This document shows, piece by piece, positions 7,480 through 31,681 of a stretch of 31,993 nucleotides of DNA. Made by a program: the position numbers and the translations under genes. The first letter of the stretch is position 1. Each line of letters begins with the position of its first letter. The notes beneath the pieces are model-generated. The model saw nothing but the letters and a program-made list of their open reading frames with translations, searched no databases and had not been told where the DNA came from. The stretch lies in IMG/VR virus record IMGVR_UViG_3300025038_000006; one strand, written 5' to 3'. This stretch comes from an uncultured virus (IMG/VR IMGVR_UViG_3300025038_000006) (taxonomy: Duplodnaviria; Heunggongvirae; Uroviricota; Caudoviricetes).

Positions 7480-8115
7480 ATGACAAACAAGGCAATCGAT
7501 TTATTTTGGTATAACGACAGTAAGGCTCACAGCCCTTTTACTGAATATGAGATCAGGAAAAACGTGGAAACCGGTAAGTACCTAGTTAAATACTGGAACT
7601 ATAACGAGGTTACTCCAACTCATGAAAAAGCAGTTGAGCCGCCGCAAACTGCAACTGGATTTATCAGCCTTTATGGTGCTAAAAATTGGGCACAAAATCA
7701 TTTTGAGGAGAAACTACAAAATTGGTTCAAAGCCCCAACTGAGCGTGAATTATTAACTACTAGCATACAAAGTCTTGTTGATGCATGCCACTCACGAGCG
7801 GCAGCAAATGGCTGGTGGACTGATTTATCAACTGGCGAACCCCTGGCTCGCAACAAAGGCGAGATGATGATGCTAATAGTCAGTGAGATTGCTGAAGCAA
7901 TGGAAGGTCACCGCAAAGGCCTGAAAGATGATCACCTGCCAGCCTACGGTATGGAAGATGTCGAATTTGCTGACGCTCTTATTCGTATATTTGATTATGC
8001 CGGTGGGCACAACCTGGAATTGGCCAACGCGTTCGTTGATAAGCTTGATTATAACGATAATCGCGTTGATCACAAAATTGAGAGCCGTAAAAAAGACGGC
8101 GGTAAGAAATACTAG
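7480..8115 (+). CDS. Phage protein with C-terminal MazG-like (all-alpha NTP pyrophosphohydrolase) domain
   Basis: LIVSEIAEAMEGHRK...EDVEFADALIRIFD gives the ExxE...ExxD acidic motif; N-terminal half unassigned. Confidence 0.8.
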   Translation: MTNKAIDLFWYNDSKAHSPFTEYEIRKNVETGKYLVKYWNYNEVTPTHEKAVEPPQTATGFISLYGAKNWAQNHFEEKLQNWFKAPTERELLTTSIQSLVDACHSRAAANGWWTDLSTGEPLARNKGEMMMLIVSEIAEAMEGHRKGLKDDHLPAYGMEDVEFADALIRIFDYAGGHNLELANAFVDKLDYNDNRVDHKIESRKKDGGKKY

Positions 8116-8139
8116 AGCACATGCAAAGGAGTTAGTAAT

Positions 8140-8343
8140 ATGAGCGGAATCTACTATACTACAGCACAAATTAAAGAAATATTTTGCTGGGAGTCTAATA
8201 CAACAATTTATCGCAAAATGGAAAGCGGCTTTTTACCTGAGCCTGATTTGAAGGGCCGCCCTAACAAATGGCTAAAATCAAAGATTGATGATATCATTAA
8301 TGAGCAGTCGGCTTCAGTTGGCAGCGAAGAAAATGGGGCTTAA
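8140..8343 (+). CDS. AlpA-family excisionase / recombination directionality factor
   Basis: 67 aa with TTIYRKMESGFLPEP...RPNKW.KS.ID pattern; adjacent to the att site; RBS aaggag. Confidence 0.8.
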   Translation: MSGIYYTTAQIKEIFCWESNTTIYRKMESGFLPEPDLKGRPNKWLKSKIDDIINEQSASVGSEENGA

Positions 8344-8386
8344 TGCCTCGTTTTCACCTTTAAATTAAGGTGACTTTTTGTAATAA

Positions 8387-8480
8387 CGGTATTGCGTGCG
8401 GTATTTTAGCTTTCCAAATTACTCAATCCCTTGTAAATCATATCTTGTAGCTTATAGTGTGTGTCCTCGTGGGCACACCA
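8387..8480 (+). other. Prophage attachment site (attR): arm-type repeats plus duplicated tRNA 3' end
   Basis: GTCCTCGTGGGCACACCA (8463-8480) parses as T-stem 3' strand CCTCG, acceptor strand TGGGCAC, discriminator A and CCA; direct repeat CGGTATT at 8387 and 8399; no upstream tRNA body. Confidence 0.7.
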
Positions 8481-8530
8481 CTTACTGTATTTTAGTATTA
8501 TTCTTTAACAAGCTACCTTTTATCTAAACG

Positions 8531-8571
8531 AAAGGGCCGTAAAAACACTAAGTATTTTTACGGCCCTTTTT
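8531..8571. terminator. Bidirectional terminator
   Basis: aaagggccgtaaaaa / tttttacggcccttt inverted repeat between convergent units. Confidence 0.85.
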
Positions 8572-8591
8572 ATTTAAATGCAATCAATTGC

Positions 8592-8717
8592 TTAGTGGCA
8601 GTGATATACACCAGTTTTACTATTAGTATGGCAGCCAGCTGCATCTGTACCGCCACTATGCGCAACGGCAGTGGTAGCTAATGTTGCTGAAACCAAGATG
8701 AATAATAACTTTTTCAT
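8592..8717 (-). CDS. YHYH-type small secreted peptide (41 aa; absent from the ORF track)
   Basis: MKKLLFILVSATLATTAVAHSGGTDAAGCHTNSKTGVYHCH; signal peptide ending in AVA; HSGGTD..GCH...TG.YHCH motif; RBS aagga. Confidence 0.85.
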   Translation of the reverse strand: MKKLLFILVSATLATTAVAHSGGTDAAGCHTNSKTGVYHCH

Positions 8718-8838
8718 AGAGGATTCCTTTTAATTTATACGAAATAGAAATTGATGAGTAGAAATTGTAATATATAAGTCCTATCCATCACATATTAGAA
8801 TACTTTAATAGTTTTTAAACTTCAATATATAAGTAATA

Positions 8839-9216
8839 CTACTTATTCATAAGACGAAGAAATTGTGGGTTTTTCACTTGTATCTGCATATTATTTTTAT
8901 ACTCCTCCACTGTACCACGCACACAAAAACGCTTACCTACATAACCATCGATTTTGCCAAAGCGCTCCTCGAACCAGCGATAATCTCTGTCCCAAACTAA
9001 GATAGTAAGGGTTTGATTAGGATAACGCTTGTCAAGATTTAGATAATGTCTATTAGACAGATGCTTAACCTCTGCTAAATTGCCACATGCCATAACAGAC
9101 TTCCCCACATGAAATGGTGCTTTATAAGCTTCAATCTTAGGCTCTGCTGCATTGGCAGTTATCGCCGATACACTTAATAAGATAGTACTGAACCCTAATA
9201 CTAATTTCTTAATCAT
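8839..9216 (-). CDS. Secreted OB-fold (nucleic-acid-binding-like) protein
   Basis: Signal peptide ending in ANA; H.G...CG...V...YLNL...YPNQ..TI.VW...Y.G...C..GT...YK...QI...P pattern shared with 9601-9933. Confidence 0.75.
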   Translation of the reverse strand: MIKKLVLGFSTILLSVSAITANAAEPKIEAYKAPFHVGKSVMACGNLAEVKHLSNRHYLNLDKRYPNQTLTILVWDRDYRWFEERFGKIDGYVGKRFCVRGTVEEYKNNMQIQVKNPQFLRLMNK

Positions 9217-9248
9217 AAATATCTCCGAACTACTTAACTTATAATTCT

Positions 9249-9587
9249 TTAACTTGAGTATATCATTCTAAAAAATAGAACAATACAAATGGCCAATGCT
9301 ACAATTAAAGTCAATGACTTTACTATCTGTTTTGAGGTGAGGTATTCATTACTCATTTTTTCTACTGCTTTTTGTTTGAGTTTTTCCTTATCAAGTTTTA
9401 ATTTAGCATCTAGTTGTCTTATTCGCTTTCTTTCTAAATCGAGAGCCATTCTTTCTAGCTTTATGGCTTCTCTTTGCTGCTCAGCTTCTTGCTCTAATCG
9501 TTTATTTTTCGCTACTAATTCATCTTGCTCATAAATAATACCGACTAAAATCAAAATAACAAAAAGACCTAGTAAGAACTCTCCCAT
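9249..9587 (-). CDS. Membrane protein: TM - coiled coil - TM
   Basis: Hydrophobic N- and C-terminal segments flank a Lys/Glu/Arg-rich helix. Confidence 0.75.
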   Translation of the reverse strand: MGEFLLGLFVILILVGIIYEQDELVAKNKRLEQEAEQQREAIKLERMALDLERKRIRQLDAKLKLDKEKLKQKAVEKMSNEYLTSKQIVKSLTLIVALAICIVLFFRMIYSS

Positions 9588-9600
9588 GTATTACACCCTA

Positions 9601-11121
9601 TTATAGTAATTGACTTGGAGAAGCTAACTTGATTTGAGGGGTGCCTTTATAAGAATCTATAGTCCCTTTAATGCAAACATCCTGACCTTCATACTGGTAA
9701 ATATTCCCAAAATTATTTGCATCAGATTCCCATATAACAATAGTGGCATTTTGGTTGGGATAAGTTGCCCCTAGATTTAAGTATGTCCCTTTACTAAAGT
9801 CTTTAACTTGTACTATATTACCGCATACCACGCGATAAGACCCAATATGCTTATAAGCCTGTGAAGCAGGTACGCTATTTGACATAACAGACTCATAGCT
9901 GCTTAATTCAGGCTCTTGATAACTAGGAGACACTTCTTCAATCTTAGCAGGCTATACAGACTTGGGTTCATCTCCAGACTTTTTATAGACAGCTGATTGT
10001 GATTGAATGGAATCTATACTCTGTTCTGGCTGAGCAGCCGGATTGCTTGCTGGAGTATCTGCAACTTCATTTGTAGCAGCAACGTTCTCTTGTAGCACCC
10101 CTTCATTATTTAATTCAGAACCATTCAGAGCCTCTTCTCCTTCATAATCAGTTGGCTCACTTGAAACACTAGCTAATGTCATTGGCTCAATAACATCATC
10201 TTGTTCATCAGATTTACTAAAGAAGGCATTAGCGCCAAACGCTATTATAATAAGCGCGACCGACCCAATAGCAATCATATGACTGAGCGTTACTTTTGTT
10301 TGAGATAGTGCGGTAGGCTCTCCTTTAGGGATAGATGGCGTGAAACTAGTATTTCTCGAACCAACCATGCGCGGATAATCAACCTCTAAGTTAGATGGCT
10401 TTAGGTTCTGTGATAATCCGTTGACTACTAACGGTTCCTTGTTACCATTTGTCTGCTCTACCTTATCTTGTAATGCAGCAATGGTTGCCTTTAGCTCAGC
10501 AATATCTTCTTTAGTAATGATATCTATTGGCTTCTGACTTTGATGCTGAGCTTTTATAGCTTCCTGTTCTGCTTTGGTGCGCTTGGCTTGCTCAGCTTGG
10601 AACTTTTTAGCCTGCTGTTCTTCTTTCTTCTTTTGCTCTGCTAGTTGTTGTTCATACCAAGCCAACTGATTTTGATATTCCTTAAAACGCTTGGCTGTTT
10701 GCTCTTTGGTTACCTTAGCACTTAATTGATTAGTGTTTTGTAGATGTAAAGTATGACGAATCTCCTTAATAATACCTTGAGGATCAAGTTCCATCTTTTT
10801 ATTGGTATATCTAAGCAGAACTCCGTATATTTTTACTAAATCATTCTGCCTCTTGAGCATGTCGTCAAATTCACGATAAGTTTTGACCTTCCAATACCCA
10901 TCTAATTCTATAGGTAGCAAATAGCCTTTTGATTTATTCTCAATCATAAAGTCAATGTATCTATTTCCACCATTGGAATCTGTAAAATGATACTGCGCAA
11001 CGACATCTTCAGGCTTAATCTCTGGTACTTGCGCTAAAATACATCTCACAAATTGCTCTTCATATCCTGCGACATGCTCAAGCTCTTTTTTATTAGCGTA
11101 TATCCACTCTTCCCAACTCAT
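9601..11121 (-). pseudogene. DUF559/Vsr-like nuclease - coiled coil - TM - OB-fold fusion interrupted by one in-frame TAG at 9952-9954
   Basis: N-terminal QY...YIDF...IELDG...D...RQN.L....LLRY motif; TM HMIAIGSVALIIIAFGANAFF; ORFs 9952..11121 and 9601..9933 share a frame and read ...KSV*PAKIEEVSPSYQ... Confidence 0.7.
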
Positions 11122-11498: not shown

Positions 11499-11884
11499 TC
11501 ACTTTAAGCAAGTTTGATTAATCTCTTCTCCTGTTATGACTTCGTCTGTTTCTTCGTAGTCTTCAGGTTTATCATAATTATATTTAATCTCAAACTTTCC
11601 ATCTGGGTATAGAGTAAAGGTTAAGCCCCATATTTTATCACCTGTTAATTTCAACATATTATCTTTAAGTGAAGTAATTAGATTCATTAGAGAAATCAAA
11701 TCATCAAATTCTAGTGAATGATAGGATTCAACTTCATTCAAATAAGAAACTATAATCAATCCACTTAAATCCGAACCTAGTATATTTGTAGATAATTTAA
11801 TGTAATCACAACCTCTATTTTGGTACTGTATTAAGATATCACCTATTAGAGAGTACAATACAATGCCTCGATATCTTCTGTCAT
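11499..11884 (-). pseudogene. DUF600/YezG-like immunity protein, frameshifted near the N terminus
   Basis: C-terminal W.LTFTLYPDGKFEIKYNYD motif; ATG at 11884 (MTEDIEALY) with gaaaggg RBS is shifted out of frame by a 5-bp tandem duplication (TACAA x2, 11854-11863). Confidence 0.6.
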
Positions 11885-16744: not shown

Positions 16745-19486
16745 TCAAATCACCATAACACCTTGTTCAATATAGACATCATTTAGCGCGCTCACAGCGT
16801 TTGAATGTTGATACACGTCATAACTTACGCCAGCGACAACTTCGCTGCTAGCTAGGGACCAATCGCCCCCAGTGACATCATCCATTTTCGCCTTAGAAGC
16901 ATCATCACTGCTCCAATTAGTTGACCCTAAGTCAACCTTACTTAAGTCATTACCATTGATAAATAATGCCGACTCACGGTCAGTATCTTGTAATAGATCC
17001 TCAAACCGGACATCTAAAACATTTTGGCCATTCAGTTCAACATTCTCGATACCCGTCAAATTCTCTGTGGTTGCATTGGTAATATGTCTATTGCCGTCTA
17101 CCAAACGGCTGTCTAAACTGTAATCTAATATTAGGGTGTCTGTACCTGAGCCTCCAGCGATAAGACCTGATAAATCTGAACCACAAACCGTAATTATATC
17201 GTCGCCCCTACCTAAATCTATACTTGAACCTCCTTTGACGCTATCTAAAACGCTCATGACATCGTTGCCATCTCCAAGGCCCACTGAAGCATGATTTAAA
17301 GTTGACCCTTCAACAACTAAAGTATCTTCCCCGTTACCGGTAATAATCGTTGAATGGTCTTCTATATGCCTTGCCACGTTAATAACATTGTCACCATCAC
17401 CTAAATCAACAACCGCATAATCTTCAACATCTTCACCGACCGTTAACGTATCATTGCCTTCATAAGTAGTTAATCGGCTATGACCATCAACATCGTCACC
17501 GGTGGTAATAGTATTATCACCGGCTCCTAAGTCAATATCGGCACGGCCATCAATTTTATGACCTACCACAAGCTCATCCACTCCAGCACCCGCTGTGATA
17601 TGCGTTGCTCCTAAAATATTTTTGCCGAAGCTTAGTGAATTATCACCTTCACCAAGATGAATTTCACTGTGATTGACCATAGATTTAGCCACATTGATAA
17701 CATCGTCACCATTACCCACTTGAATAGTAGAGTGGTCTTCGACAAAACTGTCAATAGTGATTGAGTTATCGCCATCTCCTAAATCAATTGATGAAGAGTC
17801 TTCTGTATCATCGCCAATGACTAGGGTATCGACTCCACTACCGGTAATAATCTTAGACTGACCATCTAAATCATCACCAATATCGATGTTATTAGTACCC
17901 TCGCCTAAATTAATTTCACTGGTGCCTTCAACAAAGGTGCCAATGCTAACATTGTCATTCCCATCACCACCAAAGACATGACCAAAATCATTTGCACCAG
18001 CATTTCCAAGATTATGGGTTATCGTCAGATAGTTGGTATGGTCAGCACTATCTAATGATGAAGCAGCTTGTTCATCTAAGGCAAACTCAACACGGCCTGC
18101 GCCTAAATCAATGACACCGCCATCATCCATTTCACCATAGACGGTCACCTCATCATTACCACGTCCCATAAAGATACGACCACCGTCTATTCCCCACCCT
18201 GTGACCTTACCTTCGGCATTACCACCGATTACCACAGTGTCATTACATTCTTCAGTATAGATATAGCTTCGAGCTTCAAGGTTGGTTTGAGCCTGACCCA
18301 ATACCGCATCCATTTTACCTTGAACATAATAAGTATCATTACCGCTACCTAATTTAGCAGACGTATAAGCATTTTGATCCTCACGAATATGCACCAAATC
18401 ATGACCGCCATAGGTTTCCAAACTCCATAATGCATTACCGTCTTCATGATCTCTTTCAAAGTCGCCATCCCAGGGAGATTTAATTAAATTGTCTTGACTA
18501 TCAAAACCGGTATAACCGATGTAGATAGCATCGTTATAATCACTGGTTGCATAATTAATATCATCGCCATATTTACCGCCTGTTTTGCCACGCGGGTCTG
18601 AAGGGCCTTCACTGTCTGTTAAGTTGGCGCCTAAATGCCATAAATACATCGGTGCAGCATCAATACCGGGTTCGTCACAAGGGTTAGTTGCTGGTAAATC
18701 TAATACAGCAGAATCGGTACTGGTGGGTGAGGCGTTTTCATACTGATCAATGATAATAGCGTCCACTATGACTTCTGAACCATCAACTGGGTTAGTGACA
18801 TCCGTAAATGAGCCCGTATAACCATTCAAAAGTATCTCATCGGTAACCACTATTTCTGTGACATTATCAATGGCCACACCGTTTTCAGTATAAGTGGTGG
18901 TAATTAACAAGGTACTGCCTACAACAGTAGTTGAATCTACTGTTACCACATAATCTACAGTGTCTTGGAGCTCTGAGTTTTCGATAACCCCATCATCGTT
19001 AATATCTTCGGTAATGACAACATTGGGAGCAGCTGGCGGCTCAAGTTGTACATCGTAACTGTGCTCTATTTCACCGATATATGGGTTCTCCTGTAAATCA
19101 ATTGCAAATGCCGCTATTGAAACGGAGTCGTCAGCTGCTAAATCACTACCCAATACAGATACTGAATAAGCATTATTTGAATCCAGATTGGCGGTATATT
19201 CTTGATTGTTTAATGTCACCTTTATTAAAGTAAGTTGCTCATAATTTCCCTCTACTGTTCCAGTTAATAAGATTTCTTGGCTGGCTTCAGAGATATTGAC
19301 CACATTATTTTCAGTGATACTGTCAACCAAGACAGTTAGCATGTAATTAGGGTCTATCGCTAGGGTTTGTGGCTGTACAGAAATAGCGGCTATCTCTGCA
19401 TTATTATTTATACTTTTATTGTTAATGATATTTTTATTATTAATATTGAAGACGTCCGATATTATTTTTTGATTTATATTATTCAT
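16745..19486 (-). CDS. RTX-like calcium-binding surface protein (Ig-like domains + 21-aa beta-solenoid repeats), probable T1SS substrate
   Basis: No signal peptide; two Ig-like modules; about 13 tandem GxGxD/N repeats; C-terminal GGSGTDTL...GIENVEL...YDVY...VYIEQGV region like Bap-type T1SS substrates. Confidence 0.8.
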   Translation of the reverse strand: MNNINQKIISDVFNINNKNIINNKSINNNAEIAAISVQPQTLAIDPNYMLTVLVDSITENNVVNISEASQEILLTGTVEGNYEQLTLIKVTLNNQEYTANLDSNNAYSVSVLGSDLAADDSVSIAAFAIDLQENPYIGEIEHSYDVQLEPPAAPNVVITEDINDDGVIENSELQDTVDYVVTVDSTTVVGSTLLITTTYTENGVAIDNVTEIVVTDEILLNGYTGSFTDVTNPVDGSEVIVDAIIIDQYENASPTSTDSAVLDLPATNPCDEPGIDAAPMYLWHLGANLTDSEGPSDPRGKTGGKYGDDINYATSDYNDAIYIGYTGFDSQDNLIKSPWDGDFERDHEDGNALWSLETYGGHDLVHIREDQNAYTSAKLGSGNDTYYVQGKMDAVLGQAQTNLEARSYIYTEECNDTVVIGGNAEGKVTGWGIDGGRIFMGRGNDEVTVYGEMDDGGVIDLGAGRVEFALDEQAASSLDSADHTNYLTITHNLGNAGANDFGHVFGGDGNDNVSIGTFVEGTSEINLGEGTNNIDIGDDLDGQSKIITGSGVDTLVIGDDTEDSSSIDLGDGDNSITIDSFVEDHSTIQVGNGDDVINVAKSMVNHSEIHLGEGDNSLSFGKNILGATHITAGAGVDELVVGHKIDGRADIDLGAGDNTITTGDDVDGHSRLTTYEGNDTLTVGEDVEDYAVVDLGDGDNVINVARHIEDHSTIITGNGEDTLVVEGSTLNHASVGLGDGNDVMSVLDSVKGGSSIDLGRGDDIITVCGSDLSGLIAGGSGTDTLILDYSLDSRLVDGNRHITNATTENLTGIENVELNGQNVLDVRFEDLLQDTDRESALFINGNDLSKVDLGSTNWSSDDASKAKMDDVTGGDWSLASSEVVAGVSYDVYQHSNAVSALNDVYIEQGVMVI

Positions 19487-19805: not shown

Positions 19806-22800
19806 CTAAATAATATGATTATCTACTAAGTTATTAAAATCACCTGCGTAGTTATCAATTTGAATATTTAGATCACTTTGAGCGGCAGAGTATCCACCAC
19901 TAAAGTTACCATCTGCACTCACACCTAGTACTTCGGTTACGGCATCCCAATTTAAATAATCTGCAAGATTGGCAGCATCTCCTATGGTTTCACCTTGCAG
20001 TAAATCGCTTAGATTTAACTTATCACCTGCTTCAAAATCAGTAATAATATCTAAATCAGGCGTTGATACCCCGTCTATATCATTATTCGTCCAGATGAAA
20101 GTATCCTCACCTAGTCCGCCCGTCAGTACGTCATTTCCAGATTTGCCTTGCAGAATATCATTACCATCCATACCTAGTAAGACATCATCTAATCCTTCAC
20201 GGCCTACTAAGGTTTCTGAAGCATTAGTACCTTGAACCGTGCCAGTATCACCTTGTTGGTACTCGATGCTTACTAACGCTGAGCTAGAAACGTCATTTTC
20301 AGAAATTGTGTAATCGAATGAATTCACACTAGAGAAGTCAGTCGTGGTATAGATGACTGGATCAACACCTGAGGTTTGACCTCCATTAACATCAAAGGTT
20401 GTTGTTACTTCAGAGTTAGGTGAGGTATTGTCGTTACCTACCAATACCGCTTGATCTAACTCTAATATGCCCGTAGTGTCATTGGTAATGACGCTATCAT
20501 CTTTAGCAGATAAACTGTAGACGAAGATAGTTTGCGTTGATTCAACACTATCGCCGTCATCGTCTATAAGGGTAAAGGTAATATCTTCTTGATAATCAAC
20601 CACTAATGATTGAGTTTCATAGGTATATTTACCTGTCTCGAAATCTAGCGTCATAACACCTTGTGCCTGGGTATTAATTATGACCGTTGTTGTTGATTGG
20701 TCATAGCTATATATATCTGATGATGGACTAGATGCTACCATAGAGCCATCGCTACCATCATAATCATAGGTAATACCATCTAAGGTAAAGGTTAGGACGT
20801 GACCTTCATCAGCACCAAACAAGTTTCCATTTACCAAACCATAGTCTATGACATCAGGTAAGGTATCGATAAGGATATCGTCAAGCTCATCTAGATCAGT
20901 AACGATTCTGGCAAGATCAGTCGCGCCTTGTTCACCAATCTGCCCATCATAAGCAATGGGGTCAAGTTCGATAGTCGACTCATCAAAATCAGGACCGAAA
21001 GCAAAGGCATAAGATTTAATGTCATTAGCATTCAAAAAAGTAGTCCATAATGTTTCTTCTTGAGCTTGAATACCATTATCTTCATTAATATTACCCTTTG
21101 CGCCTGTACCATTTAGACCTGGATCAAAGTCGTTTACGGTTCCTTGACCAAACGTTGGCTCGCCATCGGTTAGGAAATAAGAGTAGTTATTGGCACCAAA
21201 TATACCCCCTGCATTATCGTAACTAGTCATAGTCACATCTAAAGCAGCATCATAGTTCGTACCACCACCAGGGGTTATACCAGGTAAGCTAGCTTTCAGT
21301 TCATCGATAGTCATCCATTGTGGCTGTGCCTGTGCCTCTTTAGCAAAGGTGATTAGCTGAACTTTAACATCGCCGGCCACATCATAACCGTCTAGTAACT
21401 TCACAATAGCCGCTTTTGCAAAATCGAGACGGGTTTCACCTCCAGAAATCTCCGTACTCATGCTGCCTGAAGTATCTAGAATAATAGTGATATTTGAGTC
21501 GGATGTTGCAGCAGCAATATCAATGTTACTTTGTGATTGTGCAGGTCTATCATCCTCAACAGTAACCGCAAAGTTAGTGCTAGCTGATTGTGTACCATCA
21601 CTGACACTGGCTTCAAACTGAACGTCGACCTGATCCTCATCGTCATTACTAGGGTGGTCAATAGCATGTAGCAACGTTGTATTGTAGTCGGCTACAAACC
21701 CACCTGAGCCATCAGTAGTAATGGGTCCTACATCAACTGTCATAACCTCTAACAAGTCTCCCTCAATAACTACTTGACCGGTTAACTGACCGGTTAAGTC
21801 ATCCCATGTCCAACTGACCGTCTCACCTTTTACAGTGATATCAGTTGGGCCAGCTAAATCAATAGAAAAGTCACTAGCATCAAAATTATCAACATCTGTA
21901 AAACTGATTGAACCAGTCGCTACTGCACTGTCCGTTGTATCGTTATTGCCTGTGGTATCGGGGATTGGATCAAACTCTGTTAGACCCTCTTCTGACACTG
22001 TTACTGGAGTAACGGTCGGAATGGCGCAGTCATTGCTACCTTTAATTACAATCTCTAATACCGCAATATCTGAGCCTGTACCATCTGTCATAGTGTAGTT
22101 GAAGCTTTCAGTTAGTGAGTCGCCATCATTTAAGGCTTGAACGGTGGCATCGTCATCATTTACTTCATACACATAGGTCCCATCAGCATTGACTGTTAGC
22201 GTTCCATAAGTACCTACCAATGCCGTTCCTAATGTGCCAGCAGTGCCACTACCTTCAACTCCACCAACTCTAATATCAGTCACTATAGCATCAGTTTGGT
22301 CTGGATTATCATTGGTTAGCACGTTACCGGTCGCATCTTGAGAACCTGATCCATTATTGATACCTCCAGCTTCAACAGCGGCAGCACTATCGTCTACTGC
22401 TAATAAGTCATTATCAACAATAGTACCTATGCCACTATTTAAAATATTAGCATTTGTACTTGGATTACTGAGTGTTATGTCAAATGTTTCTGTAGCCTCC
22501 CATACTGCGTCATCTATGATAGGAACAGTAATGGTTTGGGTCAATATTCCTGGAGTAAAGGTTAGCGTACCCATTGTGTTTGTATAGTCTGTACCATCTA
22601 CTGCTGTAACATCGGCAGTTGCATAATCAACAGTAACATCAGCTACTGCAGCTGGGCCACTTAGCGTTACTGTGAAGGTCATTGTTCCGTCCTCCTCATT
22701 AACTGACTGACTATCAATACTAATATCGGTTATATAATCATCATTAATGATGGTCATATCAGCGGTGTTAGCGTCAGAATCAACACCAATGCTTTCAAAG

Positions 22801-25800
22801 CCGCCGCCTACAGGATTGCTGATAGTGATATCAACGATTTCATCATCCTCTGCTAACAGATCATCTATCACCGTTAGGTCTAAATTAACTGAGCTTTGAC
22901 CGGCTGGTATAGTCACTTGAATAACGCCAGTAAAGTCATCGCCATTGTCAGCTGTGCCTGAGTAAGTCACATCAACTGTGACGTCTGTAGCAGCAGTTAT
23001 TAAATCACCGTTTTGATCGCGCAACTCAATTGGAAAAATGCCGATATTATCAGGATCAACAGCACCTTCGTTGATTGAATCAACATTATCTACGATAGAC
23101 ACTTCAACTGGGTCAGGTATAGGCTCGTCATTGATAGTCCCTGTAGCACTGCTACCTCCTATGGTTAATGTGGTGGTTTCGCCATCATCTGCATAGCTGT
23201 CATCAATGGTTGGATAAGTGACAGTAAAGCTTGTGACACCTGCAGGTACTGTAATCTCACCTGTAACTAAGTCTAAGGTGACTCCATCACTAAAGCTAAC
23301 AGCCGTAGAGTAATCCACGTTTTCAGTGGCTGTACCTTCTGTTAAGCTAAAGCTGTAGGTTTCATCAGTCATGCTAGGGTTACTTAACGTAACCATATGA
23401 ACTAAATCATCACCTTCAAAGGCTGCAGTCGGTTCGACAGTAATCTGAATATAATCATCACTAATGATGGTCATATCGGCGGTGTTAGCGTCAGAATCAA
23501 CACCAATGCTTTCAAAGCCGCCGCCTACAGGATTGCTGATAGTGATATCAATGATTTCATCATCCTCTGCTAGCAGATCATCTATTACCGTTAGGTCTAA
23601 GTTAACTGAGCTTTGACCGGCTGGTATAGTCACTTGGATAACGCCAGTAAAGTCATCGCCATTGTCAGCTGTGCCTGAGTAAGTCACATCAACTGTGACG
23701 TCTGTAGCAGCAGTTATTAAATCACCGTTTTGATCGCGCAACTCAATTGGGAAAATGCCGATATTATCAGGATCAACAGCACCTTCGTTGATTGAATCAA
23801 CATTATCTACGATAGACACTTCAACTGGGTCAGGTATAGGCTCGTCATTGATAGTCCCTGTAGCACTGCTACCTCCTATGGTTAATGTGGTGGTTTCGCC
23901 ATCATCTGCATAGCTGTCATCAATGGTTGGATAAGTGACAGTAAAGCTTGTGACACCTGCAGGTACTGTAATCTCACCTGTAACTAAGTCTAAGGTGACT
24001 CCATCACTAAAGCTAACAGCCGTAGAGTAATCCACGTTTTCAGTAGCTGTACCTTCTGTTAAGCTAAAACTGTAGGTTTCATCAGTCATGCTAGGGTTAC
24101 TTAGCGTAACCATATGAACTAAATCATCACCTTCAAAGGCTGCAGTCGGTTCGACAATAATCTGAATATAATCATCACTAGTGATGGTCATATCGGCGGT
24201 ATTGGCGTCAGGATCAATACCAATAGCTTCAAAGCCACCGCCTACAGGATTGCTGATAGTGATATCAACGATTTCATCATCCTCTGCTAACAGATCATCT
24301 ATCACCGTTAGGTCTAAATTAACTGAGCTTTGACCGGCTGGTATAGTCACTTGAATAACGCCAGTAAAGTCATCGCCATTGTCAGCTGTGCCTGAGTAAG
24401 TCACATCAACTGTGACGTCTGTCGCAGCAGTTATTAAATCACCGTTTTGATCGCGTATCTCAATTTCGAAACTGCCGACGTTATCGGGGCTAGTGGCAGA
24501 CTCATCGATTACCCCTACATTGTCAACAATCGATACTGACACTGTGTCAGGTGTAGGTTCATCAATGATAGTGCCCACGCCATTATTTAAAATAGTGGCG
24601 TTAACAGCGTTACTCAAGATCACATCATAGGTTTCAGGGAGTTCTGCGTAAGCATCATCGATAATAGGCACTTGGATAGTTTGAGTAAATACAGTGGTAC
24701 CCGCTGTAAAGGTTATCGTACCTGTTACTCCAGTATAATCTGAACCATCTACGGCCGTTACATCCCCTGTGGCATAGTCCACTGTCACATCAGCTGTTGG
24801 CGGTACATCACCGGCTAAAGTTACGGTAAACTCTGCAAAACCAGCATCTTCATCAACGGTCACGTCATCAATTTCGACAGAATAGTAAGGGGCGTCAATA
24901 ATTGTGACATCAGCCACATCATTATCAGTATCAATAGCAATGGCTTCAAAGCCGCCACCAGTCACCTCAGTGATAGTTATGACCACGTCTTCTAGGTCTT
25001 CATTTAAGGCATCAGTTAAGGTCTCAATATTAAGGTCAACTGAACTTGTACCTGCTAAAATAACAACTGTGGTACTGACTGTTGTGTAGTCAACACCATT
25101 GGCTGCCATGCCTGTGTACTCAACAGTAACGGTCACATCAGTGGCAGCAACAATTAAATCACCATTCGCATCGCGAAGCTCAATTGGGAAGATTGCCATC
25201 TCACCTTCATTGATATCACCTGTATCACCGCCTAAATAATCGTCTACGATAGACACTTCAACTGGATCAGGTATAGGCTCGTCATTGATGGTGCCTGTGG
25301 CACTGCTACCCCCTATGGTTAATGTGGTGGTTTCACCATCATCTGCATAGCTGTCATCAATGGTTGGATAAGTGACAGTAAAACTTGTGACACCTGCAGG
25401 TACTGTAATTTCACCTGTAACTAAGTCTAAGGTGACTCCATCACTAAAGCTAACAGCCGTAGAGTAATCCACGTTTTCAGTAGCTGTGCCTTCTGTTAAG
25501 CTAAAGCTGTAGGTTTCATCCGTCATGCTAGGGTTACTTAGCGTAACCATATGAACTAAATCATCACCTTCAAAGGCTGCAGTCGGTTCGACAGTAATCT
25601 GAATATAATCATCACTAATGATGGTCATATCGGCAGTATTGGCGTCAGGATCAATACCAATAGCTTCAAAGCCACCGCCTACAGGATTGCTGATAGTGAT
25701 ATCAACGATTTCATCATCCTCTGCTAACAGATCATCTATCACCGTTAGGTCTAAATTAACTGAGCTTTGACCGGCTGGTATAGTCACTTGAATAACGCCA

Positions 25801-28800
25801 GTAAAGTCATCGCCATTGTCAGCTGTGCCTGAGTAAGTCACATCAACTGTGACATCTGTCGCAGCAGTTATTAAATCACCGTTTTGATCGCGCAACTCAA
25901 TTGGGAAACTGCCGATATTATCTGGATCAACCGTACCTTCGTAGATTGAATCAACGTTATCTACAATCGATACTTCAACTAGGTCAGGTGGATATTCATC
26001 ATTGATAGTCCCTGTAGCACTGCTACCCCCTATGGTTAATGTGGTGATTTCACCATCATCTGCATAGCTGTCATCAATGGTTGGATAAGTGACAGTAAAA
26101 CTTGTGACACCTGCAGATACTGTAATCTCACCAGTTACTGCATCGAAGGTAACTCCATCGCTAAAGCTAACAGCCGTAGAGTAATCCACATTTTCAGTAG
26201 CTGTGCCTTCTGTTAAGCTAAAGCTGTAGGTTTGATCCGTCGCACTAGGGTTACTTAGCGTAACCATATGAACTAAATCATCACCTTCAAAGGCTGCACT
26301 CGGTTCGACAGTAATCTGAATAGTGCTATCTTTAATGGTTACATTAGCGGTATCGGCCATAGGATTAACACCAATAACTTCAAAGCCGCCACCCACGGGG
26401 TTACTAATGGTGATATCAACGATTTCATCACCTTCTGCTAACAGATCTTCTAAAGAGGCAATGTCTAAGTCAACTGAGCTTGCGCCCGCAGGAATAACAA
26501 CTGTAAAGCTACCGGTATAATCATTGCCATTGGTTGCCGAGCCTGTATACTCTATCGTTACCGTGACATCGGTAAGTGCGACTTGTGGATCGCCATCAAC
26601 GTTTGTCAGGTAAATAGGAAATGAGGCTAACTCGCCCTCATAAATTGAATCTACGTCATCAAAAATAGAAACTGTCACTGGGTAATTACAATCATCGACA
26701 ATATTCATATCAGCGACATACATTACTGGATCTAGTGCAATGGCCTCGAAACCACCACCGGACACACTTGTGAGCTCAATATTAACAATCTCTGAGCCCT
26801 CAGCAATATTATCATCCAAAGTTTGTAAAATCAGATTAGTACTCTGAGCGCCTGCAGGAATTACAACACTGGCAATACCTGTAAAATCAGTACCATCAAT
26901 AGCAACACCGCTATATTCAATATTAACTGTGATATCAGTGACTGCGTTGATAGCATTGCCATCCGCGTCCTTTAGAACAATTGGAAATAAGCCACTAGAA
27001 GCTTCTATAACATCAGTAGTAAAGTCTAGAATAGACACAAAAACTGAATCGCAATCATCTACAATATTCATGTCAGCAGTGTTATGGTCTGGATCAACGG
27101 CTATAGCTTCGAAACCACCACCTGATACATTAAAGAGTTCAATATTTACTAGCTCTGAACCTTCAGCAAAATTATCATCAATCGTTTCTAACACAAGGTA
27201 ATTAGATTGACTACCTGCTGGGATAACAATAGTTGATATACCTGTAAAGTCCGTACCATCAATGCCTACACCACTATAATGAATATCTACTGTAGTATCG
27301 GTAATTGCACTTACAGGATTTCCATCTTGATCATGCAGCTCGATTGGAAAAACACCATTGCCGCCTTCAACAACATTAGTTACGAAGTCAAGAATTGAAA
27401 CAACTACTGACTCTGCCTCACAGCAATCGTCGACTATATTCATATCAGCTGTGGCTTTAGTAGGATCAACCGCTATTGCTTCAAAACCACCACCAGTTAC
27501 ACTGTTTAATTCTATGTTTACAATCTCTGAGCCTTCAGCGATATAATCATCCAATGTCGTGATATCAAAATCCACACTCGAGCTGTTAGCAGGTATAGTG
27601 ACACTTGTCACCCCTATATAGTCCGTTCCATCGATGGCCACACCACTATAATGTATATCGACAGTGACATCAGTTATAGCGGCATTAAGGTTACCGTCAG
27701 CATCTCTCAACTCTACTGTAAAGGTAGCAACCTCACCTTCATAAACCGAATCAACATTATCAACAATTGACACATAGACTGAGTCTAAATCTGTGTGACA
27801 CTCATCAGTAATTGTGCCCACACCACTGTTTAGGATTGTGGCATTAACAGCATTACTTAGCGTCACACTATAAGTTTCAGCAACCTCAGCAATATTATCA
27901 TCCAAAATAGGCACAGTAATGGTCTGCGTGAGTGTACCCAATGGGAATACTAAAGTGCCGGTTACGCCAGTATAGTCTGAAGCATCCAGAGCAGTAACAT
28001 CACCTGTCGCATAATCCACGGTCACATCAGCTGTTGGGGCGTCGCCTGTTAAAGTTACCGTAAATACTGCATTACCAGCATCTTCGTCGACCGTTACGTC
28101 GTCAATCTCAATAGTAGTGTATGAGCTGTCGATAATATCAACGTCCGCGACACACTTATCGGCATCGACACCAAGGGCTTCAAAGCCGCCGCCTGTCGCG
28201 TCAGTAACGGTAATGACCACATTTTCTAAGTCTTCGTCTAACAGATCAGTAAGCGTTTCTATATCAAGATTGACTGAACTTTCGCCTGCTAGAATAGTGA
28301 CTGTGGTACTTACTGAGGTGTAGTCATCACCATTGATTGCCGTACCGGTGTACTCAACTGTGACAGTCACGTTAGTGGCTGCTATGACTAAATTACCTGC
28401 TTCATCACGCAGTTCTATTGGGAAGGTTGCCGTGTCACCTTCATTCACAGCGTCATAGTTATCGACGATAGATACTTCGACTAAATCTGGCAGTTGTTCT
28501 TCATCGGTAATCGTACCTATGCCACTATGTGAAATAGTTGCATTAACTGAGTTACTTAAGGTCATATCATAAGTTTCGTAAGGTTCAGCATAAACATCAT
28601 CTATGATCGGCACCTGGACAGTTTGCGTAAATACAGTGGTTCCCGCTGCAAAGGTAAGCGTACCAGTTATACCTGTGTAGTCTGGACCATTTAAGGCAGT
28701 AACATCACCTGTCGCGTAATCAACTGACACGTCAGCCGTTGGTATGCCTCCTGTTAAAGTTACTGTAAATTCTGCATAACCTGCATCTTCATCCACAATG

Positions 28801-30766: not shown

Positions 30767-31681
30767 TTATTTTTGTTGTATTACTGCGACTACTCTACGG
30801 TTCATCTGTCTTCCTTCTGCAGTTGCGTTTGAAGCAATTGGCCGTGATTCTCCATAGCCAACCGCTTGAATTCGAGCGGGACTGATTCCGTATTGATTAA
30901 TAAATACCTCTTTGACTGCCTGAGCACGACGTTTTGACAAAGCGATGTTGTAAGCATCACTTGCATTACTGTCGGTATGACCCTCGATAACTACAGTCGT
31001 ATCTGAATACTTCTGCATAAACTCGGCGGCAGTAGACAGGTCGCGTAGGTACTGAGGTTTAACCACTGATTTATCATTATCGAAAAGGACTTGAAGGTTT
31101 ATGGTGACTTTTTCTTCTAAAATAGGAGCACTAGGGGGCTGAGGCTTGGGTTGTGGACGAAGCGCACAGTTTGGAATAACTTTGCTTATTTGATGAGATT
31201 GATAGGTCATGCCAGCCATAGCAGCACGGGCTTGATCCTCAGAAACGCGTTTTGATTTTGCAACGCGGTTTTTATTCACGTTTATTTCGTAATATTGAGT
31301 CTCCTTATTTTTGAGAGTTGAAGTGTTATGTTTTAACAATAAGTCATTGGTATTTAGCTCAGAGGACCTGTTACTCAACCGGTTGTCCCCAATGCAGGAA
31401 TAAACTGTGGTAAAACTTCCAGGATGTAGGCTGACCTGATAATCATCGTTTATCGCGATATTGACCCCTGTCCTTGAGTCATCTTCATCCATAGGCCTAT
31501 AGAAGACCAGTCGGGTTGTGCCCTCAGGAGTTGGTGTATTTAAAATAGTATCTACATCGACAACTTTATTGGGATACCAAGCAACATTGTTTACTCTAAC
31601 CATTCCCTCTTCAGTAGCACATCCTTGCAACATAGAGGCTACCAATAAAGTGCCAATCCATCTTTTGGCTGATATTTTCAC
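30767..31681 (-). CDS. OmpA-domain lipoprotein
   Basis: GTG start after aaggag; lipobox LQGC; C-terminal OmpA/MotB domain VLFDNDKS...IEGHTD...YNIALSKRRA...GYGESRPIASNATAEGRQMNRRV. Confidence 0.92.
   Translation of the reverse strand: MKISAKRWIGTLLVASMLQGCATEEGMVRVNNVAWYPNKVVDVDTILNTPTPEGTTRLVFYRPMDEDDSRTGVNIAINDDYQVSLHPGSFTTVYSCIGDNRLSNRSSELNTNDLLLKHNTSTLKNKETQYYEINVNKNRVAKSKRVSEDQARAAMAGMTYQSHQISKVIPNCALRPQPKPQPPSAPILEEKVTINLQVLFDNDKSVVKPQYLRDLSTAAEFMQKYSDTTVVIEGHTDSNASDAYNIALSKRRAQAVKEVFINQYGISPARIQAVGYGESRPIASNATAEGRQMNRRVVAVIQQK

Follow-up and report, generated by a model that had tools for sequence, protein, structure and literature searches.

Two published lines of work bear most closely on the locus described here. 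SNIPE is described as a membrane-anchored nuclease, combining DUF4041 and GIY-YIG domains, which cuts phage DNA at injection, and the part of it that lies outside the membrane is reported to be the least conserved (PMC13190303). Embedding in type I restriction-modification (RM) operons has been presented as a guide to defence genes (PMC11411939; 10.1101/2024.01.29.577857), and the second of these sources, which uses the term 'guilt-by-embedding', lists thousands of RM-embedded genes. Here we analysed a 31,993-nucleotide stretch of DNA from an uncultured virus (IMG/VR record IMGVR_UViG_3300025038_000006), called the window below, and in particular four co-oriented open reading frames (ORFs) on its minus strand at 8592..11121, which we refer to as genes 1 to 4. 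We propose, with a probability of about 0.5, that gene 1 represents the central protein of a mobile and so far uncharacterised family, whose members would be nucleases that span the inner membrane once and defend against incoming DNA at the cell envelope. Our search of open-access papers and bioRxiv yielded no account of any membrane nuclease of DUF559 or NERD type that carries an OB fold on the periplasmic side; the supplementary candidate lists of 10.1101/2024.01.29.577857 may include the family.

SNIPE, as published, and gene 1, as predicted, share a single-pass inner-membrane anchor, a cytoplasmic nuclease and an outward-facing non-catalytic part, and both SNIPE and the gene 1 family are widespread accessory genes thought to act at DNA entry. 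They differ in the nuclease, which is Vsr/DUF559-like in gene 1 rather than GIY-YIG, and in the order of the chain, which is reversed in gene 1 (nuclease N-terminal, outside part C-terminal). Compared with the published account of SNIPE, gene 1 also has a predicted periplasmic OB domain that is folded and conserved, and it is accompanied by extra secreted or membrane-bound OB partners. A Pfam scan at E<=1 found neither GIY-YIG nor DUF4041 in gene 1, and the gene 1 family is therefore not SNIPE.

The whole frame of gene 1, the core protein of the family, occupies 9601..11121 on the minus strand and comprises 506 codons plus a stop, with one in-frame TAG that is treated further below. Its residues 1-130 (10732..11121, minus strand) are predicted to form a cytoplasmic nuclease domain with a PD-(D/E)xK fold of the Vsr/DUF559 kind. 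The structure of the first 135 residues was modelled with 56 aligned relatives, and the model reached a predicted local distance difference test (pLDDT) score of 92.1. Foldseek returned nothing at E<=0.001 for this model, though all of the top rows were PD-(D/E)xK nucleases. When the model was compared with 48,161 chains using VIA-align, it matched NGO0050 (3HRL, DUF559-type) with Z 11.2 and a root-mean-square deviation of 2.0 (92 of 94 residues aligned), the homing endonuclease I-Bth0305I with Z 10.0, a RAP domain with Z 9.2 and Vsr with Z 8.9. The same 3HRL was the first match of a HMMER sequence profile of the domain (E 0.024), which aligned the IDF and IELDG motifs of gene 1 with the DF...E.DG signature. 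Nine residues are invariant in the 56 sequences (D57, E72, D74, K78, R91, Q92, N93, R104 and N107), and IDF (D57) and IELDG (E72, D74) are invariant in a second set of 16 sequences as well. A preliminary description of this DNA had placed a DUF559/Vsr-like nuclease at the N-terminus of gene 1, and the model, the structural matches and the motif agree with it; endonuclease activity of the domain is accordingly predicted, and we treat it as putative.

In common with the DUF559/Vsr/NGO0050/I-Bth0305I superfamily, the domain has the fold and the D-F...E-x-D-G signature. It departs from that superfamily in an extra N-terminal helical part, in K78, a position at which DUF559 usually has a histidine, and in Pfam scores that remain below the cut-offs; furthermore, none of the solved members in the VIA listing is described as membrane-anchored. 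Because the Pfam scores lie below curated cut-offs, the modelled domain is best regarded as a distinct family within the Vsr/DUF559 superfamily. PF04480 was not listed for the window protein in the Pfam scan; among the relatives only P0248 reaches it (20.9 versus 20.6), and PF04480 matches occur in just 2 of 41 genomes of the order. A profile of full-length gene 1 (alignment A2) searched against the PDB by sequence matched coiled-coil proteins alone.

The nuclease domain is followed by a charged helical stalk rich in Q, K and E (residues ~131-235; 10417..10731, minus strand), recognised by its composition and variable in length between relatives. It corresponds to a variable, gapped region of alignment A1 and gives weak matches, to coiled-coil proteins only; we consider it a putative coiled coil. 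Beyond it, Kyte-Doolittle analysis shows a single hydrophobic segment (residues 275-303, peak 2.25) and none at the N-terminus. The transmembrane helix within this segment (residues 283-302; 10216..10275, minus strand) has a counterpart in the corresponding position of 15 of the 16 relatives that were examined. The helix leads into an acidic, low-complexity linker with an isoelectric point (pI) of 4.05 (residues 304-414; 9880..10212, minus strand), which is predicted to be periplasmic, contains the TAG and is poorly conserved in alignment A1. Hydrophobicity and pI thus confirm the earlier outline of gene 1 as a protein without a signal peptide that has one transmembrane helix and an acidic linker. 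Since there is a single transmembrane helix, no N-terminal signal peptide, an acidic flank, an exported paralog of the C-terminal domain and a Cys pair conserved solely in the OB parts, we predict that the nuclease is cytoplasmic and the OB fold periplasmic. The topology had been proposed before as inverted, with the nuclease inside and the OB fold outside, and the present evidence supports it as a prediction.

The OB-fold domain of gene 1 (residues 415-506; 9604..9879, minus strand), predicted to be periplasmic, contains the invariant pair C433 and C483 and matches Pfam tRNA_anti_2 with E 0.0014, below the cut-off. Its nature is clearer from gene 3 (8839..9216, minus strand), which encodes a basic, secreted OB protein of 125 residues with invariant C44 and C98 and an NPQFLRLM tail. 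Gene 3 starts with a hydrophobic, signal-like segment, with a cleavage motif ANA/AE read by eye, and aligns with the gene 1 C-terminus at 35% identity with both Cys invariant; in related loci the paralogy of the two is supported by phmmer E values of 1e-12 to 1e-18. There are 90 relatives of gene 3, and the protein is 50-80% identical from Vibrio to Psychrobacter. A model built with 38 relatives had a pLDDT of 90.0. Foldseek gave 115 matches at E<=0.001, led by Stn1-Ten1 (E 7.9e-6), RPA and the anticodon domains of aminoacyl-tRNA synthetases. VIA-align placed 25 chains at Z>=8 with nucleic-acid binders on top (Teb1 OB-B, Z 10.0; AsnRS anticodon domain, 9.4; Ten1, 8.9). Searched by sequence only, the gene 3 profile (A3) had one chance-level match in the PDB. 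The OB-fold-like domain suspected past the TAG, and its signal-peptide-bearing paralog retaining both Cys, are thus both substantiated.

Mature gene 3 has a pI of 9.58 (8.0-9.7 in 10 of 11 homologs), and aromatic positions are conserved in the alignment that joins it to the C-terminal domain of gene 1. Basic pI and conserved aromatics are hints that the OB module binds nucleic acid or another polyanion. The best structural matches of gene 3 are in RPA and CST (Stn1-Ten1), and the cluster resembles these complexes in encoding two to three paralogous OB units together. The likeness is at the level of the fold only (9-19% identity), and the gene 3 protein differs in being extracytoplasmic with a conserved Cys pair; heteromers are putative here. 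When a complex of mature gene 3 (residues 24-125) and the OB domain of gene 1 (residues 408-506) was predicted, the score was 0.00, which speaks neither for nor against binding.

The gene 1 architecture is widespread. A word-indexed search recovered 248 relatives. When a profile of the N-terminal domain was searched against 1.84 billion cluster representatives, it matched 573 of the 50%-identity clusters with E<=0.001; E did not exceed 1e-10 for 318 of these and 1e-30 for 150. Among the best 150 clusters, 100 combine the N-terminal domain with a transmembrane helix and the OB fold and 5 with the OB fold only, while 23 have the N-terminal domain with a transmembrane helix and 22 the N-terminal domain only, many of these being short fragments. 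Sequence comparison therefore shows the architecture to be kept in no fewer than 105 of the 150 top-ranking clusters. Variants exist. One clade of gene 1 relatives without the OB domain (P0263, P0265, P0273, P0277, P0280, P0288 and P0297), with the motif LAIELDGLTK, keeps the stalk and the transmembrane helix and has a long, disordered, low-complexity periplasmic tail that ends in a short conserved R-x-D-R-D-like motif. In Moraxella nonliquefaciens (locus L024, 6001..7365; P0211 and P0229) the N-terminal domain is followed by an apparently soluble region of ~330 residues in which no transmembrane helix or OB fold was found and which appears to contain a degenerate duplicate of the N-terminal helices.

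A second nuclease family appears in the same arrangement. Of 18 longer proteins with the gene 3 domain, 17 have the layout NERD, transmembrane helix, OB, OB (500-573 residues). The four that were scanned have an N-terminal NERD domain (PF08378) scoring 35-42 bits against a cut-off of 22.1, and one hydrophobic segment lies near residue 200-295. The distal OB domain is 58% identical to gene 3 and has the same NPQFLRLM tail. These proteins (P0344-P0360, for example from Marinospirillum insulare) are uncharacterised, P0344 bearing the source name 'NERD domain-containing protein'. They share with gene 1 a nuclease-related domain, one transmembrane helix and a gene 3-type OB fold, and differ in that the inside module is NERD instead of DUF559-like and that both OB domains lie in one chain. 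Among 400 scored genomes of the class there was one match, to a stand-alone gene-3-like gene of genome G001 only, and a metagenome scan found two contigs of ~2.3 kb. The fusion shows a membrane-tethered OB and a gene-3-type OB apparently working in one chain. It also shows what reads as an exchange of the inside module between two unrelated nuclease families with the outside module kept, an arrangement that looks like a sensor or adaptor joined to an effector. We regard the NERD fusion as the strongest support for a sensor-effector device, an idea that the conservation of the gene 1 architecture supports as well.

The preliminary description had seen genes 1 to 4 as one conserved system, and in this respect it does not hold. 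Linkage was counted in 29 loci from species genomes. Gene 3 adjoins gene 1 in 19 of these (18 of the 21 in which gene 1 is uninterrupted), seven loci, from Psychrobacter and one Acinetobacter, have a homolog of gene 2, and two have a linked gene 4; all four genes occur together in L007, L008 and G010/L043 only. In five loci of Acinetobacter the position of gene 2 is taken by a protein of ~280 residues consisting of a transmembrane helix, a coil, a second transmembrane helix, a linker and an OB fold. The loci in Vibrio, Ignatzschineria and Rhodopila have genes 1 and 3 only, and three genomes (G162-G164) carry gene 1 with no gene 3 anywhere in the genome. Gene-3-like genes are found in 14 of 121 genomes of the genus, seven copies being linked to gene 1 and eight standing alone. 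Given these linkage counts and the stand-alone copies, the real unit appears to be gene 1 as the core with gene 3 as its usual, non-obligatory partner, gene 2 being lineage-specific and gene 4 a neighbour.

Gene 2 (9249..9587, minus strand) encodes a membrane hairpin of 112 residues, a lineage-specific accessory in which a charged coil of ~60 residues is enclosed by two hydrophobic segments (residues 1-26 and 85-112). These terminal segments around a charged loop match the earlier reading of gene 2 and suggest a hairpin with a cytoplasmic coil. Gene 2, or the OB-bearing protein that replaces it in Acinetobacter, is probably an optional membrane accessory. Gene 4 (8592..8717, minus strand), loosely linked to the cluster, encodes a YHYH_alt peptide of 41 residues with a signal peptide. 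It scores 50.3 bits against NF033223 (YHYH_alt; cut-off 30, E 2.2e-13), with residues 17-41 covering the whole 25-position model, and starts with a hydrophobic, signal-like segment followed by a cleavage motif AVA/HS read by eye, as anticipated for a secreted YHYH peptide. The 'YHYH' of PMC7824862 was considered as the motif of gene 4 and rejected, as it is the larger Pfam YHYH domain and not the 25-residue YHYH_alt. Of 21 relatives, 3 have a YHYH_alt gene, which adjoins the cluster in only one of them.

The distribution of the family is patchy and the family is horizontally mobile. Matches to P0001, the closest database relative of gene 1, occur in 10 of the 121 genomes of the genus, seven of them uninterrupted, one with a TAG, one a fragment and one consisting of a gene-3-like ORF only. 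Gene 1 is present on 5 of 72,556 plasmid records (Acinetobacter indicus, Vibrio, two Roseomonas and Polaromonas). For the gene content of the surroundings we examined 26 loci (L005, L016 and L023 were left out), with Pfam run on all chosen ORFs. A recognised defence gene lies within ~6 kb in 11 of the 26 loci, with one further ambiguous case (RM, Zorya, GmrSD-like, PDC and HEC genes), a raw count without a matched background. With this proviso, the co-localisation with defence genes that had been looked for is observed.

The individual neighbourhoods are diverse. In L001 (Psychrobacter sp. MES7-P7E; 7337..10198) ZorA and ZorB of Zorya directly follow a gene 1 that is cut off past its transmembrane helix. 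L007 has PDC-S26, a GajB-like helicase and an HsdR fragment, and L014 has HsdM, PDC-S02 and an AbiJ domain. L012 and L013 both have a GmrSD-like HNH protein and a giant DpdF/GajB-like helicase; GmrSD/HEC-06 is found in L022, PDC-M09A in L021, PDC-S26 and WYL in L025, and the ambiguous case is a GajB-like helicase in L029. Type I RM genes are present in L017 and L028, and HsdS lies just upstream of the three-gene cluster in L010. In L017, L028 and the A. indicus plasmid the three genes lie exactly between hsdS and hsdR. The Acinetobacter cluster therefore shares the hsdS/hsdR-type position in which, according to the published surveys, PrrC is known and TgvAB and other defences were found (PMC11411939; 10.1101/2024.01.29.577857). 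Neither in sequence nor in domains is it related to PrrC or to GmrSD-like proteins, and the embedding is confined to the Acinetobacter branch. Integrase, transposase, resolvase or excision genes flank several other loci. The chromosomal hot spot of L001 is shared by L004, L005 and L025, which have the same flank, and holds different defence cargo in different species.

Several results weigh against a defence nuclease at the envelope. Gene 1 had no match in 50,697 phage records, there are no PHROG matches for genes 1-4, and no model of PADLOC-DB v2.0.0 matches genes 1-4 beyond coiled-coil noise (PDC-S66, E 0.0019; PDC-M09A, E 0.025; both in coiled-coil stretches). The nuclease domain scores 20.4 bits against PF18741, below the curated gathering cut-off of 38.2, and the OB domains are likewise below their gathering cut-offs (gene 1 C-terminus, PF13742, 19.2 versus 27; gene 3, PF01336, 15.3 versus 27). 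In the VIA-align comparison with gene 3, periplasmic OB proteins with ligands other than nucleic acid score only a little lower than the nucleic-acid binders (CcmE, Z 7.9; YgiW, Z 7.4). The defence count is affected by kinship between loci, as L012/L013, L010/L017/L028 and L001/L004/L025 share sites, and PADLOC was run on 71 of 143 candidate flank ORFs after those with plain housekeeping domains had been dropped; the surroundings of L009, L011, L018, L020 and L027 are of the housekeeping kind. Broken or fragmentary copies of gene 1 are frequent (the window, L001, L006, L022, L025, L029, G096 and G005). Finally, gene-3-like genes exist alone in housekeeping context, and for this reason an independent function of the OB protein is conceivable. 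In two genomes of the genus a secreted OB protein of this stand-alone type (5961..6329 of L055, minus strand; 5744..6127 of L053, plus strand) is conserved between the genes for sulfate adenylyltransferase and cardiolipin synthase, the arrangement recorded for G001 and G098.

On balance we still favour defence at the envelope, in which gene 1 would act as follows. The charged stalk and the one transmembrane helix would tie the cytoplasmic nuclease to the acidic linker and the periplasmic OB domain. The outside OB module and the basic gene 3 protein would bind a polyanion that appears in the periplasm on DNA entry, most likely nucleic acid, and the nuclease would then cut DNA at the inner membrane face. 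We lean somewhat towards activation through ligand-driven clustering, rather than constitutive action, because PD-(D/E)xK nucleases commonly must pair to cut both strands. If several OB units held one polymeric ligand, their stalks would be drawn together. The acidic linker could serve as a competing pseudo-ligand for the OB domain, by analogy with the acidic tails of single-strand binding proteins.

A more far-reaching form of this mechanism, which we consider quite unlikely, is a transmembrane receptor for periplasmic nucleic acid. In it, the OB folds of the gene 1 tail and gene 3, joined in Acinetobacter by a third paralog on the membrane hairpin protein, would form an RPA/CST-like DNA-binding unit in the periplasm; DNA exposed there by a phage, a pilus or an uptake machine would gather the stalks and so activate the nuclease, Vsr-like or NERD, on the inside. 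In its logic such a receptor might be likened to Toll-like receptor 9, though prokaryotic and with its effector built in.

The best-surviving rival, in our view unlikely but less so than the others, is a constitutive gatekeeper without signalling, in which the OB domain would serve only to dock the protein where phage DNA enters, be it at the tail, the tape measure protein or the channel, and the nuclease would cut the DNA as it is threaded through. SNIPE is reported to work in this way (PMC13190303). The gene content of G162-G164 suggests that gene 1 can act alone, without gene 3, and the clade with a disordered periplasmic tail in place of the OB domain is what would be expected of an adaptor. 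What ranks this explanation second is the conservation of the outward part, since the outside of SNIPE is described as its least conserved region and the OB module here is the best conserved, as the identities of gene 3 from Vibrio to Psychrobacter show. The OB module has, moreover, been kept where the nuclease was swapped for NERD. Because of this strong conservation and retention across a nuclease swap, a generic ligand fits better than a phage-specific dock.

Quite unlikely, in our estimate, is that the module blocks or processes DNA that the cell acquires by natural transformation. Its OB proteins would bind DNA drawn into the periplasm and its nuclease would destroy the incoming strand, and mobile elements would carry it to stop their host from curing them by recombination. 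The hosts are mostly Acinetobacter, Psychrobacter, Moraxella and Vibrio, genera that include naturally transformable ones, and in Vibrio and Campylobacter transformation is blocked by DNases that mobile elements encode. The module is indeed found on plasmids and islands, and at L011, L022 and L047 it has secreted non-specific nucleases as neighbours. The list of taxa may nevertheless reflect only sampling, no competence gene was seen beside the 26 loci examined, and the neighbours are anti-phage systems instead of uptake genes. The three secreted nucleases lie within ~3 kb of gene 1 in unrelated loci, as Endonuclease I (L011, 10153..10998), Endonuclease_NS (L022, 4319..5374) and 'DNA/RNA non-specific endonuclease' (L047, 5335..6096); their proximity may be due to chance or to a functional link with extracytoplasmic DNA.

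Least probable of all is that gene 1 is no defence nuclease and is instead a membrane-tethered DNA-binding regulator of ToxR-like logic, with gene 3 as its periplasmic partner, or an envelope-stress factor, the OB domain binding a ligand other than nucleic acid. YgiW and CcmE are near structural matches, a periplasmic OB protein of the YgiW/CcmE kind in V. cholerae is reported to bind antimicrobial peptides (PMC6370654), the C-terminal OB domain of TcdC is reported to be exposed on the cell surface (10.1101/872283), and a gene-3-like gene can stand alone in a housekeeping context. We set this explanation aside as very unlikely because the unrelated NERD nuclease family takes the same place, which makes an inside module that merely binds DNA hard to explain, and catalytic-type residues are invariant over 56 sequences in a family whose distribution is patchy and mobile.

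If the envelope-defence reading is correct, the family would be a second case of DNA interception at the envelope after SNIPE (2026), with an unrelated nuclease, a folded and conserved periplasmic module, and inside nucleases that can be swapped. It would be a device of one to three genes, found in 573 clusters, on plasmids and in type I RM operons of Acinetobacter, and it would give a function to unnamed 'DUF559 domain-containing' and 'hypothetical secreted' proteins. Should the OB module bind something other than DNA, gene 1 would still represent a new type of single-pass device passing a signal to a nuclease.

The copy of gene 1 in the window is interrupted. The ORF to the TAG (9952..11121) encodes 389 residues, and when the TAG is translated through, the frame stays open until a stop at 9601-9603. 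The TAG, codon 390, lies at 9952..9954 (minus strand) within the acidic linker. Base 9954 of the window is A in public run X1 only, a possible origin of this DNA, and C, giving GAG (Glu), in X3, X4 and X5, which come from three other studies and whose copies are at least 99% alike. P0001 has 506 residues, is 95% identical over the first 389 and has Glu at the position of the TAG, as does P0002. Because all five of these read Glu, and because the 116 codons past the TAG are otherwise intact, the break appears to be a private, recent and strain-specific nonsense mutation. Recoding or readthrough of the TAG was considered and rejected, as near-identical natural copies have GAG. The mutation would end the product before the OB domain, and the local copy is for this reason probably inactive.

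The gaps between genes 1 and 2 (13 nt, 9588-9600) and between genes 2 and 3 (32 nt, 9217-9248), taken from the ORF coordinates, are as first described; genes 3 and 4 are separated by 121 nt (8718-8838). A likely two-way terminator closes the cluster at 8534..8572, just past gene 4, where a GC-rich inverted repeat (8534-8566) and a T run were read by eye; the terminator scan did not list the repeat, whose loop exceeds the limit of the scan. The scan did find a terminator-like site at 11290-11264, upstream of gene 1, which ends the preceding gene. A promoter scan was uninformative (12 sites versus 11.5 expected). The cluster had been placed beside a tRNA-type integration site, which is untenable since ARAGORN found no tRNA or tmRNA gene in the window and no Rfam family matched there at the gathering score.

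The cluster does border mobile DNA, as a prophage-like block adjoins it on the left (1..8343, plus strand). This block carries phrog_9664, a UPF0114 membrane protein, a Sak4-like annealing protein (3045..3734), an SSB (3752..4558), a pyrophosphatase (7465..8115) and, at its end beside the cluster, an excisionase-like gene (8140..8343), all on the plus strand; no integrase was found in the window. On the right of the cluster are a small YezG-like ORF and genes for an M14 carboxypeptidase, a hybrid sensor kinase and a response regulator. The small ORF (119 residues; 11499..11858, minus strand) lies just upstream of gene 1 and has a weak match to YezG-like immunity proteins (20.9 bits versus a cut-off of 21.7); it may be an orphan immunity gene, and it is not kept beside gene 1 in other loci. 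Further to the right, an ORF of 913 residues (16745..19486, minus strand) has sub-threshold Ig-like and Ca-tandemer adhesin matches, and an ORF of 3622 residues (19806..30674, minus strand) is followed by an OmpA-family gene at 30767..31681. G001, the nearest genome, lacks the cluster at this site, and homologs of the two flanks of the window are split between contigs there, the block homologous to 1..8343 lying on one contig and the carboxypeptidase side on another. P. pasteurii carries the cluster where the window does, with the M14 carboxypeptidase gene before it and mobile-element genes after it.

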